The notes under the pieces: generated by a model | The model's input: the letters and a program-made list of their open reading frames with translations, nothing else | Database searches by the model: none | What the model was told of the DNA's origin: nothing | In this document: positions 1,726 through 11,520 of the stretch, in pieces | Numbering within the stretch: the stretch's first letter is position 1 | How the letters are laid out: every line of letters begins with the position of its first letter | Translations under genes and position numbers: made by a program | IMG/VR virus record: IMGVR_UViG_2671180727_000025 | Direction: 5' to 3' (one strand) | DNA length: 11,520 bases | Origin: a virus | Taxonomy: Duplodnaviria > Heunggongvirae > Uroviricota > Caudoviricetes

Positions 1726-2025
1726 ATGAAACTTAAATATTCTGGCTTAACTGCCAGTGGCAACACTCACCCTAAATTTACGCGCGGTGATATTTACCGC
1801 GACCAGTACGGCGGCACGGTAATGATTAAGGGCGTGGCGGGACGGTGCGTAACTTACCGCCGTGAAGGTTACGAATATGATTGCGTGATGCCTGTTTATC
1901 AGTTCCGGCGTGATTTTTCTCTGGTACAGACCGCGCCGCATAACGTGCCCACCAGCAACGCCAGGGCACGGGCAAACCTCCAGAAGCTGAAAACCATGAT
2001 TAACGGATTCAGGGGTAAAAAATGA
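1726..2025 (+). CDS. Hypothetical protein
   Basis: 99-aa ORF with ATG at 1726 and a GGAGAA Shine-Dalgarno (1712-1717). Its stop overlaps the start of the helicase gene (ATGA at 2022-2025). Confidence 0.5.
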   Translation: MKLKYSGLTASGNTHPKFTRGDIYRDQYGGTVMIKGVAGRCVTYRREGYEYDCVMPVYQFRRDFSLVQTAPHNVPTSNARARANLQKLKTMINGFRGKK

Positions 2026-3431
2026 AACTGGCACCGAACGTAAAACTATTACCGAAAGACAAATACACCGATGCGATTATTTTTGCGGGTATTGATGCTC
2101 ATTCATTCGCAGAGCATTACATCATTGCACAGGCCAAAAAAGCAGGCGATCCAGTCCCTCCCGTTTATCTGGGGCGTTATCAGTTAAGCGAACTGGATAA
2201 CCTCCAGATTGTTGATGATGGGCGATACAGGGCGACGGTGATACGCGCCGGAAATATTGAAGAGCCGCAGCTGTTAACCATCGCCACGAAACTGGCGATC
2301 GCCGGAGTCCAGGAGGCGCGGCTACTTTCTGAAAATTTCGAATTGCTGGAGGAATGGAGCGACCAGCTTCCACGGCTTAGGGAGGCATGGGAACGCGGGG
2401 AAAGCCTGGTCATGAAAAAAATCCCCCAGCGAAAAACCACGCTACCGATGAGCGTTGGATCTACCGGATACGACACACAGCTTGATTACGTGGTAAAGGG
2501 GATTATTCCGGCATCGTCGCTTTGCAGCATATACGGGGCGAGCGGTTCCTATAAATCATTCCTTGCCGGATCGTGGGCGTGTCACGTTTCCACGGGCCGC
2601 CAGTGGGGAGGCCGCAGGGTGGCGCATGGCGCTGTTCTCTATGTGGTTGGTGAAGGCGGTATCGGCGTTCCGCGTCGTGTAAAAGCCTGGGAGGTTGTGC
2701 ACGGTGAGCAGGTGAAAAATCTGTATCTGGTAAACCGTCCCATCTTTCCGGCTGTCCCGCTTGATGTTGATGAACTGGTTATTGCTGCCAGTCAGGTGGA
2801 GAGGGAAACGGGTAAACCTGTTCGCATGATTATTCTGGACACGCTGGCGCGCTGCTTTGGCGGCAATGATGAAAATGACTCCCGCGACATGGGGGCGTTT
2901 ATCCGTGGGTGTGACGAACTGAAACGACGCACAGGGGCCACGGTGCTGGTGGTTCACCATTCCGGCAAGGATGAGACGAAAGGCGCGCGCGGTTCCAGTG
3001 CATTTCGTGCTTCGCTGGATGCTGAATACCGGATACGCAGGGAGGACGCAGGAAGCGAAGCGCTGGTTATCTCATGCACCAAAATGAAGGACGCGGAGGA
3101 ACTCAAAGAGGCTGCCTATGATTTGCGGGTAGTGGAGCTTTTTACCGACGCTGACGGGGAGTTAATCACGTCGCTGGTGGTGGTGGATAAGCCGCGCCCT
3201 CCCGTTGAACTGGAGCGCATCGAAGAGGCAGGCAACAAGACGGAAAACCATACCGCGCTATGGGGGTGTATCCGTTCACGCACACAGAACGGCGACAAGT
3301 GCACGATCCCGCTGTTACGTGATGACATGAAAAAACTGGGGTACGAAATAAAGCACTTCCGGCGCTGGCTGGGCAAGCTGGAAAAAGACGGCGTTATCTA
3401 TGTTGACGGCGATGATGTAGGGCCACTGTAA
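2022..3431 (+). CDS. Replication initiator/helicase, RepA-like AAA_25 (RecA-fold) ATPase
   Basis: 469-aa ORF. Walker A-like IYGASGSYKS, Walker B-like VRMIILDTLARCFGG, and a downstream VLVVHHSGKD motif are typical of RepA/DnaB-like AAA_25 helicases of plasmids and PICI/satellite Rep proteins. No primase zinc-finger or TOPRIM motif recognised by eye. An iteron array begins 1 nt after the stop. Confidence 0.8.
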   Translation: MKLAPNVKLLPKDKYTDAIIFAGIDAHSFAEHYIIAQAKKAGDPVPPVYLGRYQLSELDNLQIVDDGRYRATVIRAGNIEEPQLLTIATKLAIAGVQEARLLSENFELLEEWSDQLPRLREAWERGESLVMKKIPQRKTTLPMSVGSTGYDTQLDYVVKGIIPASSLCSIYGASGSYKSFLAGSWACHVSTGRQWGGRRVAHGAVLYVVGEGGIGVPRRVKAWEVVHGEQVKNLYLVNRPIFPAVPLDVDELVIAASQVERETGKPVRMIILDTLARCFGGNDENDSRDMGAFIRGCDELKRRTGATVLVVHHSGKDETKGARGSSAFRASLDAEYRIRREDAGSEALVISCTKMKDAEELKEAAYDLRVVELFTDADGELITSLVVVDKPRPPVELERIEEAGNKTENHTALWGCIRSRTQNGDKCTIPLLRDDMKKLGYEIKHFRRWLGKLEKDGVIYVDGDDVGPL

Positions 3432-3634
3432 AAAGTGGGGGGCAAAAGTGGTGGGCATGGGGAATTTAACAAAATTTAAACACGACCCCCCACTTTTTGA
3501 CCTGTATACATCCCAAAAAGTGGGGAGCAAAAAAAATTCTTATGAAACAGTATGATAAAAATTACAAATCCCACGCCTTTAACGAGATGGGGAATTGTGA
3601 AAAGTGGGGAGTAAAAGTGGGTATAGGTGGGGAG
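3432..3634. repeat. Iteron array, putative origin of replication
   Basis: At least seven copies of (A)AAAGTGGGG(A/G): 3432-3442, 3444-3455, inverted 3486-3498 (CCCCCCACTTTTT), 3515-3527, 3599-3611, 3613-3622, and a degenerate 3623-3634. Two repeat clusters flank an AT-rich core (about 3528-3598). Position immediately downstream of the Rep helicase matches rep-ori organisation in PICI/SaPI-type elements. Confidence 0.6.
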
Positions 3635-3886
3635 ATGACACAAAAACGCAAAGACAGAACACAGCCAAAATATAAAGCGTTAGACATGACAGAGCACGCT
3701 TTAAAGGTGGCAATCAGAACGATAGACCGCCACGCGGGGGAAGGATACGCGAAGGAGCATCCCGAACTGATAAGCGCATTCATGACCACAGCGGCGGCAA
3801 ACTTTGCCACGCTGACAGAACGGGAGATTGCCGAAGCGGAACAGGTAACAACAATCAACGTTAAAACCGGAGAGGTGGAATCATGA
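3635..3886 (+). CDS. Hypothetical protein
   Basis: Internal ATG 3635 of track ORF 3497..3886, 83 aa. Chosen because the upstream in-frame portion merely translates the iteron repeats (KWGVKVGIGGE). A G-rich stretch (3626-3634) lies just upstream. Start is uncertain; alternatives are ATG 3587 and ATG 3542. Confidence 0.4.
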   Translation: MTQKRKDRTQPKYKALDMTEHALKVAIRTIDRHAGEGYAKEHPELISAFMTTAAANFATLTEREIAEAEQVTTINVKTGEVES

Positions 3887-4197: not shown

Positions 4198-4608
4198 ATG
4201 ACAGCACAAATTGCAGCTTACGGGCGGCTGGTGGACGACCCGCTGGTAAAACAGAGCAGCAAGGGCACACCGATGACTCTGGCGCGTATGGCGGTATCGT
4301 TGCCATGCAGCCAGGCACATGACGGACAGGCGACGTTATGGTTATCGGTTATCGCATTTGGCAAACAGGCCGATTTCCTGGCTAAACATCAAAAAGGCGA
4401 TGTTGCCAGCGTATCCGGCACGATGCAGGTAAGCCAGTGGACCGGACAGAACGGGGAAACACGGCAGGGGTATCAGGTTATTGCGGACAGCGTAATCAGT
4501 GCCCGCGCGGCACGTCCTGGCGGGAACAGACGCAAAGCCACAGGCACACAGGGTAATCAGCCACCAGCGGGAGGTGATGACCCTTACGGTGATGATATTC
4601 CGTTCTGA
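4198..4608 (+). CDS. ssb: Single-stranded DNA-binding protein (short SSB with acidic C-terminal tip)
   Basis: 136-aa ORF. OB-fold-like N-terminal region, a Gly/Pro/Gln-rich linker, and a C-terminus DDPYGDDIPF that matches the conserved acidic SSB tail (DDDIPF). GAGGTGG Shine-Dalgarno at 4187-4193. Confidence 0.8.
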   Translation: MTAQIAAYGRLVDDPLVKQSSKGTPMTLARMAVSLPCSQAHDGQATLWLSVIAFGKQADFLAKHQKGDVASVSGTMQVSQWTGQNGETRQGYQVIADSVISARAARPGGNRRKATGTQGNQPPAGGDDPYGDDIPF

Positions 4609-4618
4609 GGGGGTGACG

Positions 4619-4891
4619 ATGGCACATGACCGCATAGCGGAGGAACTCGAGGCAAAAGGCTTTTACCGGAGGGCGGCGGCGCGATGGGGTGAAGTCATGC
4701 AACTGGTGGAGACAGACAAGGAACGGCATCAGGTTACGATGCGACGGCTGGAATGTTCCAGGAAGGCACAGAGGCCACCGGAGCCGCCGGATAACTTCGG
4801 AGACCTGAGAAAGGCAGTCGATCGCACTTATGCTGAAATGGGTATGGATGGTGTAAGCGATGAAATATGGCGTAATTACACAGACAGCTAA
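4619..4891 (+). CDS. PerC-family transcriptional regulator (tentative)
   Basis: 90-aa ORF from the internal ATG 4619 of track ORF 4499..4891, with a GAGGGGG Shine-Dalgarno (4607-4613). The N-terminal motif AEELEAKGFYRRAAARWGEVM resembles the conserved PerC/Pch N-terminus as I recall it. Followed by a strong terminator. Confidence 0.5.
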   Translation: MAHDRIAEELEAKGFYRRAAARWGEVMQLVETDKERHQVTMRRLECSRKAQRPPEPPDNFGDLRKAVDRTYAEMGMDGVSDEIWRNYTDS

Positions 4892-4896
4892 TCAAC

Positions 4897-4929
4897 AGCC
4901 GGAGCAATCCGGCTTTTTGTTATTTTTTG
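4897..4929 (+). terminator. Rho-independent terminator
   Basis: AGCCGGA (4897-4903), GCAA loop, TCCGGCT (4908-4914), followed by TTTTTGTTATTTTTTG. Sits 6 nt after the PerC-like stop. Confidence 0.8.
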
Positions 4930-5178
4930 TAAATTATTTGTTCGTGGTTGTTCCACGTTGTTCACTGAGCGGATCGGCATATTTTACCCGAACTGAATCA
5001 TGATTATTCTCGCCCGTGGTGCCAGGACGCTGGGGCCACTTTCCCGCCTGTTAATGTGCTCGCCAATATTCATTACCAGGCGGGAAAACGATCGGTGCGA
5101 TTACTGATTTCCTTATGAAAAACGGTTGAGTGTTTGCCGCGTCCTGGAGTTCCTTACTTAACCCCAGGACTTTTTTTT
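4930..5178 (+). promoter_or_regulatory. Leader/control region of the head-morphogenesis operon
   Basis: About 250 bp of non-coding DNA between a strong terminator and the capsid gene. Contains tandem GTTGTTC(C)AC repeats (4947-4965), a candidate sigma70-like promoter (TTGTTC 4958-4963, 16-nt spacer, TATTTT 4980-4985), a perfect 9-bp inverted repeat TCCCGCCTG (5042-5050) / CAGGCGGGA (5077-5085), and a hairpin GTCCTGG (5141-5147) / CCAGGAC (5164-5170) followed by T8 (5171-5178) abutting the capsid ATG. Confidence 0.4.
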
Positions 5179-6336
5179 ATGCAGAGAATAATCGAATTAC
5201 GCCAGCAGAAAACCGCCATTAAAAATCAGATGCGCGACATGCTGGAGAACGCGGAAAAAGAAAACCGCAGTCTTAACGATGCTGAGGGCGCAAAATTTGA
5301 CGAATTACGCGCTAAAGCTGAATCCCTCGATAAAGACATTTCCCGCCTTGAAGCCATTGCAGACGAAGAGCGCAGCAAGCCAGGTAAAAGCAGCCAGACC
5401 ACTGACCCCGCAGAACTACGCAGCTACATTCTGACAGGTGAAACCCGCGCATTAAGTACAGGCGTTCCCGCTGATGGTGGTTATACCGTTATCCCCGAAC
5501 TGAACACCGAAATCATGCGAATGCTGGCGGATGAATCCACCATGCGCCGCATCTGTACCGTGAAAAAAATCAGCAGCAACGAGTTTAAGCAGCTTGTTTC
5601 CGCTGGCGGTGCGACCGTTAACCACGGTGAAGAGGGTAAGGCACGCGAACAGACCAGCACCCCGCAGATTAACGAGGTGAGCATTAAGCTGTATCCGGTC
5701 TATGCGTACCCGCGCACCACACAGGAAATCGTGGATTTTTCCGATGTGGACATCCTTTCATGGCTGACGGGTGAGATTGGCGACACCTTCACGGAAACCG
5801 AAGAAAGCGATCTGGTTGTGGGCGACGGTGACAAAAAAGCAAAAGGTTTTTTATCCGTACCCCGTGCAGAGAAGAACGACAAAGAGCGTGATTTTGGTAC
5901 GTTGCAGGTAATTAAACCTTCCGAATCTCTGGCGTGGACATCTGCGGACCCGCTGATCGACCTGAAATTTGCATTACGTAAAAAATACCGCAAAAACGCG
6001 GTCTGGGTGGTTAACTCCACGACGGCGGCAAAACTCCAGAAGGTGAAGAACGCGAACGGTGATTACATCTGGCGTGACCGTTTACAGGCGGGTGATCCTG
6101 ATACGTTGCTGGGCCTTCCGGTCGAATATCTGGAGTTTATGCCTGATAACGTTATTGCCCTGGGTGACTTCAAACGCGGTTACTACATTGTTGATCACGA
6201 AACAGGTGTTCGCACCAGACCGGACAACCTCACAGAGCCGGGCTTCATCAAAATTTTCACGCAGAAATATTTAGGCGGTGGCGTGGTGGATTCGAACGCG
6301 ATCAAGATTCTGGAACTGCCACAGGACGACGATTAA
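5179..6336 (+). CDS. Major capsid protein, HK97 family, with N-terminal coiled-coil delta/scaffold domain
   Basis: 385 aa from ATG 5179; the track ORF starts at an upstream in-frame TTG 5134. N-terminal 90 aa are charged and coiled-coil-like (ELRQQKTAIKNQMRDMLENAEKE...). The C-terminal body has HK97-fold-like motifs (VVGDGDKKAKGFLS, YIWRDRLQAGDPDTLLGLPVEYLEFMP). No clear Shine-Dalgarno for either start. Confidence 0.88.
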   Translation: MQRIIELRQQKTAIKNQMRDMLENAEKENRSLNDAEGAKFDELRAKAESLDKDISRLEAIADEERSKPGKSSQTTDPAELRSYILTGETRALSTGVPADGGYTVIPELNTEIMRMLADESTMRRICTVKKISSNEFKQLVSAGGATVNHGEEGKAREQTSTPQINEVSIKLYPVYAYPRTTQEIVDFSDVDILSWLTGEIGDTFTETEESDLVVGDGDKKAKGFLSVPRAEKNDKERDFGTLQVIKPSESLAWTSADPLIDLKFALRKKYRKNAVWVVNSTTAAKLQKVKNANGDYIWRDRLQAGDPDTLLGLPVEYLEFMPDNVIALGDFKRGYYIVDHETGVRTRPDNLTEPGFIKIFTQKYLGGGVVDSNAIKILELPQDDD

Positions 6337-6346
6337 CAGCATACAG

Positions 6347-6375
6347 AAGGGGCTTAAAAGCCCCTTTAGTGTTTT
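6347..6375 (+). terminator. Intra-operon terminator-like hairpin between capsid and protease genes
   Basis: Stem AAGGGGC (6347-6353) / GCCCCTT (6360-6366) with a 6-nt loop, followed by TAGTGTTTT. Located 10 nt after the capsid stop. Confidence 0.6.
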
Positions 6376-6390
6376 ATGGGTGAAAAAATT

Positions 6391-6948
6391 ATGAAGAGTA
6401 TGGAAATCCGGTCATCGGAAATCACCACCAGCGGCAGCAACACGCTTACAGGCTACGTTGTTCGCTGGGATAAGCTTTCAGAACTGTTATGGGGTGAGTT
6501 TTACGAAAAATTCCAGCGGGGGGCGTTTACTGAATGGCTTGCGGCGGGTAATGACGTTCGCGGCCTGTATGAGCATGACCACAGTATGTTACTGGGGCGC
6601 ACCCGTTCCGGCACGCTGAAACTGGAAGAGGATGAAACAGGGTTACGCTTTGAACTGACCCCACCGGATACCAGTACAGGGCGCGACGTTATCGAACTGG
6701 TTAAACGTGGTGATATATCCGGCATGAGCTTTGGCTTTCGCTCCCGTAAGGATGTATGGGATACCACAACAGATCCATGCGTGCGCACCGTGCTGGTGGC
6801 GGAACTGTACGAAATTACCGTTACATCGGTACCGGCTTACCCCGATTCCGGCGTGGAGCTGGCCCGCCGTTCCCTGTATGAGCAGCACCCCGAAAAAATG
6901 CCGCGTGCGGATAATCGCCGCTGGTGGGTGGATTTAGCGGGGGTGTGA
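6391..6948 (+). CDS. Prohead serine protease, HK97 family
   Basis: Track ORF 6376..6948; preferred start is ATG 6391 (MKSMEIRS...), with GGGTGA 7 nt upstream. N-terminal ...GYVVRWDKLSE..., a candidate catalytic His (EHDHSMLLGRT) and Ser (DISGMSFGF) match the HK97 prohead protease pattern. Confidence 0.85.
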   Translation: MKSMEIRSSEITTSGSNTLTGYVVRWDKLSELLWGEFYEKFQRGAFTEWLAAGNDVRGLYEHDHSMLLGRTRSGTLKLEEDETGLRFELTPPDTSTGRDVIELVKRGDISGMSFGFRSRKDVWDTTTDPCVRTVLVAELYEITVTSVPAYPDSGVELARRSLYEQHPEKMPRADNRRWWVDLAGV

Positions 6949-9875: not shown

Positions 9876-11520
9876 GTACGCAGAAGACGTAAAAACGGGC
9901 AAAATTCCGGCCTGTAAACGGCTGAAACAGGCCGTTAAACGGTACTTTTCGGACCTTGAAAGCCCCCTTTACACGTTCGATCGTGAGGTTGTGGAGCGGT
10001 TTATTGCCTTTTCCAGGGTGTGCCCGCACGTAAAAGGGCCGATGCGTGGCAGATCCATTGAGCTGGAGCCGTGGCAGCAGTTCGCCTTTGCGTGCATCCT
10101 CGGCTTTAAGGTTAAGGCCACCGGACGGCGCAAATACACGAGCGCCTTTATCGAAGTGCCGCGCAAAAATGCGAAATCCACGACCGCCGCGATTCTGGCT
10201 AACTGGTTTCTGATTATGGAGAACGGGCAGCAGGATATTTACACCGCAGCGGTGAGCCGTGACCAGGCGCGGATCGTTTTTGATGATGCGCGTCAGATGT
10301 GCCTTTTATCCCGACCGTTACGCAGGCGGGTGAATATTCAGGCCCACAAGGTGATGCACCCGAAAAGCAACAGCCTGTTAAAGCCGCTGGCAGCAAAAGC
10401 GGCAACCATCGAGGGCACAAACCCAAGCCTTTCCATCGTGGACGAATACCACCTACACCCCGATAACGGCGTTTATTCCGCGCTTGAGCTGGGGATGGGC
10501 GCACGTCCCGAAGGGCTGTTATTTGCCATTACCACATCGGGCAGTAACGTCGTTTCAGCCTGTAAGCAGCACTATGATTATTGCTGCCAGATCCTGGACG
10601 GCGAAGAGGTCAACGATTCAATTTTTGTGCTGATTTACGAGCTGGACGACGAAAACGAGGTTGATGATCCGGCGATGTGGATAAAGGCTAACCCTAACAT
10701 CGATGTTTCCGTGGATCGTGAAAAACTGGCCTCAACCATCCAGAAAGCGCGGGGTATTCCGTCGCAATGGGTGGAGATGATGACAAAGCGATTTAATATC
10801 TGGTGCCAGGGGGCTACCCCGTGGATGGGTAACGGCGCATGGGCTGAGTGTGCCGGAACGTACACGGAGGAAGATTTACACGGGCAGGAGTGTTACGCGG
10901 GGCTGGACTTATCATCAACCAGCGATATTTCCAGCGTGTGCTATGCCTTTCCGGTCGGTAAAAATATCATGCTGGTTTCCCGTCATTATCTGCCGGAGTT
11001 CCAGCTACAGAACCCCGCCAATAAAAACCGCGCTGTCTATCGCCAGTGGGCTAAAGCGGGCTGGATACGCACAACGCCAGGTGACTGCATTGATTACGAC
11101 CGGATCAGAGATGACATCATGCAGGATGCGGAGAAATTTAATATCAGGCTGGTGGGCTTTGATACGTGGAACGCCACGCATCTCAGGACGCAATTACAGG
11201 GGGCTGGTTTTGAGGTGGAGCCGTTCCCGCAAACCTACCTCAGATTCAGTCCGGCGGCGAAATCGTTCGAAGTTTTTGTTAACCGCAGGGTGATTGTGCA
11301 TCGTGGCGATCCGGTGTTGTCCTGGTCGATGAGTAACGTCGTGATGCAGAGTGACGCGAACGCCAATATCAAGCCGAACAAGAAAAAATCACCGAACAAG
11401 ATAGACCCGAGCGTGGCGGCGCTGATGGCGTTTGGTACATTCCAGGCAGAGCATGAGGATTTTGCTTTTGATATAAGCGACAGCCACCGCCAGAAACTGG
11501 AAGAATTTAGCGGGGTGTAA
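9859..11520 (+). CDS. Terminase large subunit (Terminase_1-type)
   Basis: 553-aa ORF. ATPase motifs (VPRKNAKST Walker A-like, SIVDEYH Walker B-like) and a C-terminal nuclease region. Apparent TTG start at 9859 overlaps the small-terminase 3' end by 17 nt, preceded by GAGGA (9849-9853); the first in-frame ATG is about 60 codons in and would truncate the conserved N-terminus. The stop is the last codon of the window. Confidence 0.9.
   Translation: MTAWNKYAEDVKTGKIPACKRLKQAVKRYFSDLESPLYTFDREVVERFIAFSRVCPHVKGPMRGRSIELEPWQQFAFACILGFKVKATGRRKYTSAFIEVPRKNAKSTTAAILANWFLIMENGQQDIYTAAVSRDQARIVFDDARQMCLLSRPLRRRVNIQAHKVMHPKSNSLLKPLAAKAATIEGTNPSLSIVDEYHLHPDNGVYSALELGMGARPEGLLFAITTSGSNVVSACKQHYDYCCQILDGEEVNDSIFVLIYELDDENEVDDPAMWIKANPNIDVSVDREKLASTIQKARGIPSQWVEMMTKRFNIWCQGATPWMGNGAWAECAGTYTEEDLHGQECYAGLDLSSTSDISSVCYAFPVGKNIMLVSRHYLPEFQLQNPANKNRAVYRQWAKAGWIRTTPGDCIDYDRIRDDIMQDAEKFNIRLVGFDTWNATHLRTQLQGAGFEVEPFPQTYLRFSPAAKSFEVFVNRRVIVHRGDPVLSWSMSNVVMQSDANANIKPNKKKSPNKIDPSVAALMAFGTFQAEHEDFAFDISDSHRQKLEEFSGV

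Follow-up and report, generated by a model that had tools for sequence, protein, structure and literature searches.

A probable iteron origin of replication beside a RepA-type helicase gene in a capsid-forming PICI of Escherichia coli

Positions 3430-3634 of the window, the whole 11,520-nucleotide stretch of DNA analysed here (IMG/VR record IMGVR_UViG_2671180727_000025), are very probably the replication origin (ori) of a capsid-forming PICI (cf-PICI) in E. coli tqsA. The evidence consists of the repeats that fill the region, their conservation, their concerted variation between elements, synteny with a validated PICI ori, covariation with residue 445 of the adjacent initiator-helicase (Rep), and fold predictions for that protein. 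The sequence-only reading had taken the region for a putative satellite origin, and the type of element, the synteny, the conserved layout, the covariation of residue 445 and the predicted winged helix of Rep all support it. The finding is a well-supported, ordinary example of a published layout and leaves current understanding standing; only the correspondence between one Rep residue and one iteron base goes beyond the literature compared.

The host island

The element occupies an island of ~15 kb between fragments of tqsA, as judged by Pfam and by the gene annotation of an E. coli chromosome that is 99.9% identical. Its first half carries, in order, an integrase, an AlpA-like HTH gene, icd-like genes, small ORFs, DUF4222 and a protein annotated as 'helicase RepA family', followed by the gap that holds the repeats. 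Beyond the gap lie two small ORFs and then SSB, PerC, major capsid, prohead protease, portal, head closure, connector, HNH, TerS and TerL. By the same two sources, the ~15-kb island contains no tail or lysis genes. Its gene content is that by which cf-PICIs are recognized in the part of the cf-PICI preprint compared here (bioRxiv 10.1101/2022.09.08.507074), and the element is a cf-PICI integrated in E. coli tqsA. The prototype of this class, EcCIEDL933 (Alqurainy et al., same preprint, part compared), is likewise ~15 kb long and devoid of tail and lysis genes. The replication module is named in that part of the preprint, and no origin is described there.

The rep gene (2022-3431, + strand) encodes an initiator-helicase of 469 aa that PGAP names 'helicase RepA family protein'. 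Its start is overlapped by its conserved left neighbour, the DUF4222 gene (1726-2025, + strand; Pfam DUF4222, E=2.1e-23), while a conserved 83-aa ORF (3635-3886, + strand; PGAP start ATG 3635) forms the right boundary of the origin. Farther downstream, the island encodes an SSB (4198-4608, + strand; Pfam SSB, E=6.6e-16) that is a probable accessory replication factor; an SSB gene lies downstream of the origin in most relatives. Megablast matches to this region break at Rep residue ~131 and at window position ~3625, and these sequence breakpoints outline a swappable cassette comprising helicase core, winged helix and origin.

The repeat array

Read base by base, window positions 3430-3634 contain 9-10 clustered copies of the iteron (A)AAAGTGGGG. 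The repeats are present, clustered and non-random. Across the 11.5-kb window, AAAGTGGGG is matched at no more than one mismatch eight times, and six of these eight matches fall inside 3432-3622. A scan statistic found six AAGTGG cores in a span of 210 nt, compared with a maximum of three in 1000 dinucleotide-preserving shuffles; for GTGGG, the same scan (again with 1000 such shuffles) gave eight observed occurrences and a shuffle maximum of seven. The array fills the whole 203-nt gap directly 3' of rep, up to the start of the next gene, and this gap (3432-3634) coincides exactly with an intergenic gap annotated by NCBI in the 99.9% identical E. coli chromosome.

On the left, three direct copies (L1, L2 and L3; 3430-3466, + strand) form a triplet that recurs at the same offsets in ~70 related loci. 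L1, AAAAAGTGGGGGG (3430-3442, + strand), begins inside the rep gene, its A-run sharing bases with the stop codon TAA at 3429-3431; L2, AAAAGTGGTGGG, follows at 3444-3455 (+ strand), and L3, ATGGGGAATT, is a weak copy at 3457-3466 (+ strand). A short AT-rich spacer, AATTTAACAAAATTTAAAC (3463-3481), lies between the triplet and the inverted copy, and within it AATTTAAC is retained by most of the E. coli and Salmonella relatives in the alignment. The inverted copy, C1 (CCCCCCACTTTTT; 3486-3498, - strand), is the sole strong minus-strand iteron of the array. Its opposed partner, C2 (AAAAAGTGGGGAG; 3515-3527, + strand), stands at an offset of ~88 in relatives.

C1 and C2 together make a 19-nt imperfect palindrome centred on the conserved TGTATACA. 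The non-iteron element between them, the dyad centre CCTGTATACA (3501-3510), has related forms in Klebsiella (CCTGTATACA), in Xenorhabdus (CATATATAC) and also in Citrobacter. When 14 E. coli and Salmonella origins are aligned, invariance is confined to the repeat cores AAAAGTG.G, the CACTTT of C1 and the TGTATA of the dyad centre, while the spacers vary. Single-stranded DNA of 3488-3525 forms a hairpin with a folding energy of -11.7 kcal/mol (z = -4.8). The dyad centre may be a starting point of melting or assembly.

To the right of C2 lies the main AT-rich stretch (~3528-3569, 41 nt), the presumed DNA-unwinding element. GC content is 15% in 3530-3569, compared with 30-32% in the adjacent 40-nt windows and ~50-60% in the flanking genes. 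The stretch is A/T-rich in all aligned relatives, although its sequence itself is poorly conserved. The right iteron group (3570-3634) is on the + strand apart from one weak minus-strand copy, CCCAC (3570-3574, - strand). It continues with a weak copy, ATGGGGAATT (3587-3596, + strand), and then R2, AAAAGTGGGGAG (3600-3611, + strand), R3, AAAAGTGGGTAT (3613-3624, + strand), and R4, AGGTGGGGAG (3625-3634, + strand), the last of which doubles as the Shine-Dalgarno sequence of the 83-aa ORF. The opposed pair C1/C2 flanks the 16-bp TGTATACA spacer instead of the main AT-rich stretch, which has no symmetrical opposed iterons around it, and the assignment of the melting site is therefore tentative. 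A hexamer geometry, in which a spacing of 12-13 nt would represent a 60-degree step, was dropped because the copies are unevenly spaced (13 nt, then 9-10 nt).

This array agrees in outline with the sequence-only reading and departs from it in detail. At least seven copies in both orientations had been claimed; both orientations are found, but the count is 9-10 rather than seven, and only one strong copy is inverted. The array had been placed 1 nt past the helicase stop, which is incorrect given that L1 overlaps that codon. Two clusters around one AT-rich stretch had also been described. Left copies (3430-3527) and right copies (3570-3634) do flank the AT-rich 3528-3569, but the array contains two AT-rich stretches, at ~3528-3569 and at 3463-3481.

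Other signals that were searched for gave negative results. There is no DnaA box at two or fewer mismatches within 3432-3634, no IHF consensus in the origin and no terminator in the gap 3432-3634. Nor is a sigma-70-like promoter predicted in 3300-3750, a result that bears on the possibility that the repeats are operators, at which Rep or another island protein would control transcription or translation of the 83-aa ORF, SSB, PerC and the capsid module instead of initiating replication. In favour of this possibility, R4 overlaps the Shine-Dalgarno sequence of the next gene, and plasmid iteron-binding initiators commonly double as regulators. Moreover, the genes of the island all share one orientation, and read-through transcription would run into a bound array. 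However, besides lacking a predicted promoter, the region combines an opposed pair, an AT-rich core and direct repeats 3' of rep, as validated PICI origins do, and the validated ori of EcCICFT073 occupies the equivalent slot. A regulatory side-effect would, in any case, be compatible with origin function, and a role as operators in place of an origin is unlikely.

Conservation across Enterobacterales

The array was compared with that of 6 E. coli relatives, 80 further loci (one genome per species) and 12 loci obtained via exact protein look-ups. In the 200 nt after the Rep homologue, the layout recurs at ~85 of the 94 usable loci, spread over more than 25 genera of Enterobacterales, including Escherichia, Salmonella, Citrobacter, Klebsiella, Xenorhabdus, Pantoea, Pectobacterium, Serratia, Morganella and Erwinia; a clear array is absent at ~8 of the 94. 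The common plan begins with direct copies ~5, 17 and 27 nt past the stop, followed by an inverted copy at ~45-60 and a direct copy at ~75-90. An AT-rich stretch then precedes the direct copies of the right group, at offsets of ~147, 173, 186 and 196. The minus-strand copy at offset ~45-60 is found in nearly all related loci.

The relatives also bear on whether the gap is coding. In the window, the reading frame of the next ORF has no stop for 55 codons ahead of ATG 3635 and offers ATG codons in frame, which would allow an N-terminal extension of the protein (ORF 3497-3886) from TTG 3497, ATG 3542 or ATG 3587. In five of seven relatives (L002, L005, L006, L088 and L090), however, this frame meets a stop 1-2 codons before the ATG. 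The conserved N-terminal sequence, MT(Q/R)K.RD.T.PKY, starts at ATG 3635, which is also the start chosen by PGAP, and conservation across the gap tracks the repeat cores and not codon positions. A coding role for 3497-3634 is thus refuted by the comparison of relatives and hardly deserves credence; the repeats are non-coding, which removes an objection that the sequence-only reading had raised against itself.

Similarly, the distribution of the array can be set against a role in packaging, in which the repeats would be cos- or pac-associated sites for the small terminase of the island. The island has its own TerS, TerL and HNH, and short repeats are often found in terminase recognition sites. 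Yet the array lies ~6 kb from terS and varies with Rep, not with the packaging module: one ori type accompanies different capsid/terminase modules in, for example, L002, L005 and L094. Furthermore, classical PICIs without a terminase large subunit of their own, such as EcCIRM12579 (L002), carry the array too. A packaging signal is therefore very improbable.

Of 5,426 complete E. coli genomes, at least 640 contain origin-like DNA of the RepA type; among the matches listed in E. coli genomes it adjoins a RepA-family helicase gene. Outside E. coli, a related island of 16,971 bp from K. pneumoniae, with a GTGCGGC origin, has the same ori layout and was deposited as a circular plasmid, an indirect sign that such replicons may be autonomous.

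The Rep protein

Rep is composed of an N-terminal domain (aa 1-126), a RecA-fold RepA-type ATPase core (~aa 150-332; Pfam AAA_25, E=2.9e-43, with the match ending at residue 318), a beta-rich linker (~aa 335-390) and a winged-helix DNA-binding domain predicted by AlphaFold2 and Foldseek (aa 405-469; 3234-3428, + strand). AAA_25 is its sole Pfam match, and the N- and C-terminal domains match neither Pfam (E up to 10) nor NCBIfam. The core also matches the RSF1010 RepA helicase (PDB 1g8y) at E=0.0099, and Foldseek on the full Rep model returned only RecA-fold matches, namely RAD51, KaiC, RepA and T7 gp4. Because its core matches AAA_25, RSF1010 RepA and RAD51/KaiC/T7 gp4, Rep is a RecA-fold, SF4-like protein and not a member of the AAA+ family. 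A replicon with an SF3 primase-helicase of the P4 alpha or D5-like kind was considered and rejected, as Pfam finds no D5_N, DUF5906 or Pox_D5 in the Rep of the window. This Rep also lacks a primase domain; in other genera, a zinc ribbon and Toprim primase are fused to many of the homologues.

Since the full model yielded only RecA-fold matches, the C-terminal domain was modelled separately. Mean pLDDT is 77 for full-length Rep in AlphaFold2 and ~89-94 for the C-terminal domain, in the full-length and isolated models alike. The top Foldseek matches of this domain are the cullin WHB, MepR, HrcA, DtxR, the IclR-type PcaR and the MCM8 WH, with TM-scores of ~0.55-0.62 and probabilities of up to 0.99, though with weak E-values (0.03-0.2). 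Residues 405-469 are thus predicted to be a winged helix, which in the AlphaFold2 model comprises H1 (408-422), H2 (429-438), the recognition helix H3 (446-455) and a beta-hairpin wing (459-468). His445 (codon CAC, 3354-3356, + strand) comes directly after the invariant Lys444 within the motif K-x-F-x-R-W-L and caps the N-terminal end of the predicted recognition helix. The sequence-only reading had suggested that the C-terminus could be the iteron-binding domain, and both the covariation described below and the predicted winged helix speak for that suggestion. Its description as a tail of about 60 residues after the ATPase core does not hold, as ~150 residues follow residue 318, with the winged helix taking up ~65.

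A protein search with the C-terminal 150 residues gave for the most part fragments of genes and hardly widened the range of relatives. Phage records contained only relatives of the helicase core, at no more than 40% identity and with alignments that end before the winged helix. One 54% match among the phage records is a Salmonella chromosome contig filed there.

Iteron class and residue 445

The iteron cores of related loci fall into the classes GTGGGG, GTGGGC, GTGAGG(A), GTGCGGC, GTGGGGG, GTGGGGGA, ATGAGG and GTGCGC. The fourth core base switches in all copies together, being uniform inside an element and different between elements; the array of L099 is mixed. Across the 230 columns of the Rep alignment, residue 445 (window numbering) is the best predictor of iteron class (AMI 0.87). 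At loci with at least four scored sites, His445 accompanies G as the fourth base in 16 loci, Asn accompanies A in 31 and Ser accompanies C in 7, while Lys accompanies the G of the GTGGGGG class in 30 loci and Gly accompanies C in a single locus. Contacts of His or Lys with guanine, and of Asn with adenine, are classical in side-chain-to-base recognition. The rule has one clear exception, L007, which combines His445 with GTGAGG iterons. As its origin is nearly identical to that of L089, which has Asn, the simplest explanation of the mismatch is a single N-to-H change in one strain.

The association is also evident in closely related elements and on a tree. Over the last 44 residues, the Rep of the window and that of L088 differ only by I443M and H445N, so that ...EIKHFRRWLGKLEKDGVIYVDGDDVGPL with GTGGGG in the window is paired with ...EMKNFRRWLGKLEKDGVIYVDGDDVGPL with GTGAGG in L088. 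A second near-isogenic pair consists of L090 (His, GTGGGG) and L089 (Asn, GTGAGG). On a neighbour-joining tree built without column 445, the residue changes 12 times, the base 10 times and the combined state only 13 times, with changes in the residue and in the core base sharing branches.

The codon of residue 445 is only ~75 nt from the first iteron, so the covariation could in part reflect co-transfer of a linked block, and some apparently independent switches may be transfers of one such block. Against pure linkage, the association spans at least four origin backbones per class (His and Asn) and crosses genera. DUF4222 and the 83-aa ORF are conserved across unrelated ori types, which leaves Rep as the sole linked gene to vary with the iterons; judged from these sequences, neither the 83-aa ORF nor DUF4222 is a specificity determinant.

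Comparison with known replicons

The closest validated counterpart is the PICI EcCICFT073, whose rep-ori maintains a temperature-sensitive plasmid (PMC6092414, Fillol-Salom et al. 2018, ISME J). As in the window, its iteron ori lies directly 3' of rep, with short iterons grouped in two sets about an AT-rich region, in a one-direction island that starts with int and an AlpA-like gene. Between EcCICFT073 and the window, identity is 90% for DUF4222, 45% for the Rep N-terminal domain (residues 1-126) and 74% for the 83-aa ORF; both elements also have SSB and PerC. Because the flanking genes are homologous, the two origins occupy the same slot. The rep-then-iterons layout that had been likened to PICI/SaPI elements is therefore borne out, with an array syntenic with a validated ori. 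The initiators themselves differ, however. EcCICFT073 Rep is a D5_N/DUF5906/Pox_D5 (SF3) protein acting with unrelated, TCTACC-type iterons, and only its first 126 residues are homologous to the Rep of the window.

The Rep/ori type of the window is found in two PICIs in Table S1 of PMC6092414, EcCIRM12579 (L002) and EcCI11128 (H58), so this kind of replicon has already been catalogued. No functional test or dissection of the RepA-type Rep class was found in the literature compared. Iteron sequences of several E. coli PICIs are drawn in Figure 2a of PMC6092414; a search of the running text of the literature for the iteron strings of the window matched only unrelated papers.

In SaPIs, Reps are self-loading AAA+ helicases of SF3 or SF6 with 3'-5' polarity, and their C-terminal winged helix binds the iterons (PMC9371898, Qiao et al. 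2022, NAR). The SaPI modules (Rep1, PriRep5 and SaPIbov1 Rep) resemble that of the window in having a self-contained initiator-helicase with a C-terminal winged helix, predicted in the case of the window. They also share penta- or hexanucleotide iterons that come just after rep and lie on both sides of an AT-rich region with at least one opposed pair, and a Rep specificity that matches the cognate ori (in the window, by covariation). Unlike the SaPI Reps, with which it has no sequence homology, the Rep of the window has a RecA-fold core related to RSF1010 RepA, DnaB and T7 gp4. RecA-fold RepA-type helicases are expected to move 5'-3', a polarity established for RSF1010 RepA.

The ATPase core is what the Rep of the window has in common with RSF1010/IncQ RepA (Pfam AAA_25, PDB 1g8y and Foldseek). 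IncQ RepA, however, is a helicase of 279 residues with no winged helix. At the IncQ oriV, the iterons are bound by a separate protein, RepC, whereas the Rep of the window fuses the helicase and predicted origin recognition in one polypeptide.

Iteron plasmids (pSC101, R6K, RK2, pPS10 and F) likewise place repeated initiator sites beside an AT-rich unwinding element and use winged-helix recognition. Their Rep_3/TrfA initiators contain two winged helices and no helicase and recruit host DnaA, DnaB and DnaC, and their iterons of ~17-22 bp are usually upstream of rep and accompanied by DnaA boxes (PMC4980987 and general knowledge). In the window, by contrast, the cores are 9-12 bp long and downstream of rep, and the initiator is itself a helicase. 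With no Rep_3-type initiator, no DnaA box, and short repeats downstream of rep, a replicon of the Rep_3/TrfA kind was rejected, and the likeness to iteron plasmids suggested by the sequence-only reading was not upheld.

A model for initiation

From these comparisons we infer Rep binding, hexamer assembly, the melting site, self-loading, the primer source and polarity. After induction and excision of the island, Rep would bind the (A)AAAGTGGGG iterons via its C-terminal winged helix, with His445 at the start of the recognition helix reading the fourth base of the GTGGGG core. Rep molecules on the left and right direct repeats and on the opposed central pair around TGTATACA would then assemble into hexamers. 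Melting of the duplex would start in the neighbouring AT-rich stretch of 41 nt, or perhaps in the TATA-like dyad centre, and rings of the RecA-fold RepA-type helicase would load themselves onto the single strands without a separate loader. Unwinding would be supported by the island's own SSB. As the Rep of the window has no primase domain, priming would have to come from elsewhere, presumably from host DnaG.

Implications

Locating this origin provides one for a cf-PICI, a class whose replication module was named, and not dissected, in the literature compared (for the cf-PICI preprint, in the part compared). It also indicates that the rep-then-iterons layout of PICIs survives replacement of the helicase superfamily, from SF3 in EcCICFT073 to the RepA type here. 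The correspondence between residue 445 and the iteron base offers a way of sorting islands into replicon specificity groups from sequence alone, and it predicts that H445N by itself should re-target Rep from GTGGGG to GTGAGG origins.

A broader joint reading, to which we give slightly less than an even chance, is that one residue capping the recognition helix of a RecA-fold, self-loading Rep sets specificity at the fourth base of every iteron (His-G, Asn-A and Ser/Gly-C), that replicon groups of enterobacterial PICIs arise by swaps of a ~280-bp cassette of recognition helix and origin, and that this would be the first demonstrated case of a PICI origin fired by a helicase outside the AAA+ family. 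If the cassette-swap reading is true, the resulting specificity groups may let co-resident islands coexist.

Domain architecture of Rep

The first 126 residues of Rep (window 2022-2400) share 45% identity with the N-terminus of the Rep protein of EcCICFT073 (4542-4935 of that locus), an SF3/D5-type protein that is unrelated to the RepA-type Rep of the window outside this shared N-terminal domain. The DUF4222 gene that overlaps the start of rep is likewise common to both islands, at 90% identity. A Pfam search with the N-terminal domain (residues 1-126) returned no match, and its structural model is an alpha/beta fold with a pLDDT of about 90. Homologues in many genera have, ahead of the helicase and winged helix, a zinc-ribbon and Toprim primase fused at the N-terminus, in ORFs of about 700 aa (loci L009-L033 and others); in one such homologue, P0118, the primase part matches PF08273 and PF13362. 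The E. coli and Salmonella version of Rep lacks the primase and carries the 126-aa domain of unassigned function in its place. This domain may be an adaptor common to both Rep types, with DUF4222 or a host factor as its partner.

Features of the probable origin in the window and its relatives

Between the opposed iterons of the window origin (3486-3498 on the minus strand and 3515-3527 on the plus strand) lies an element, TGTATA(C/T)A or CATATATAC, that is not an iteron and is kept from E. coli to Xenorhabdus (window 3501-3510 and equivalent positions in relatives). Within 3625-3637, the last iteron, AGGTGGGGAG, also serves as the Shine-Dalgarno sequence for an ORF starting at ATG 3635, and because of this double role, Rep occupancy could be coupled to expression of the downstream gene. 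Two perfect DnaA-box 9-mers (TTATCCACA) occur in the window, at 900-908 and 10676-10684 (minus strand). Both are distant from the origin and probably arose by chance, since 40 matches with up to two mismatches were observed against about 30 expected. Elsewhere in the window, positions 4499-4891 encode a PerC-family transcriptional activator (Pfam PerC, E=6.8e-44), a known PICI accessory gene (listed in PMC6092414).

The sole mismatch to the rule that Rep residue 445 tracks the fourth iteron core base (His with G, Asn with A, Ser or Gly with C) is found in E. coli ETEC1738 (L007, 3007-3484), whose Rep has His445, yet all of its iterons read GTGAGG. The 478-nt gap of this locus also contains a second, partial origin-like array (CCTCACTTTTGCGTATATATAAGGATTAAAAAGTGAG...). 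In Xenorhabdus beddingii (L009, about 3556-3810), a complete GTGAGG array is followed by additional copies that belong to another class: AAAAGTGGGGAG, AAAATGGGGAA and GGTGGGGAA. They resemble either a remnant or a further origin with a different specificity, adjoining the first.

A possible episomal relative

One relative was deposited as a plasmid: K. pneumoniae pKp_Goe_795-4 (CP018459.1), a circular molecule of 16,971 bp. The record is itself a cf-PICI-like island with integrase, capsid and terminase genes, a RepA-type Rep (5081-6445, minus strand) and a GTGCGGC-iteron origin (about 4870-5080). A gene annotated as encoding a tail tape measure protein is also present. The molecule may be a satellite in episomal form, captured during assembly.
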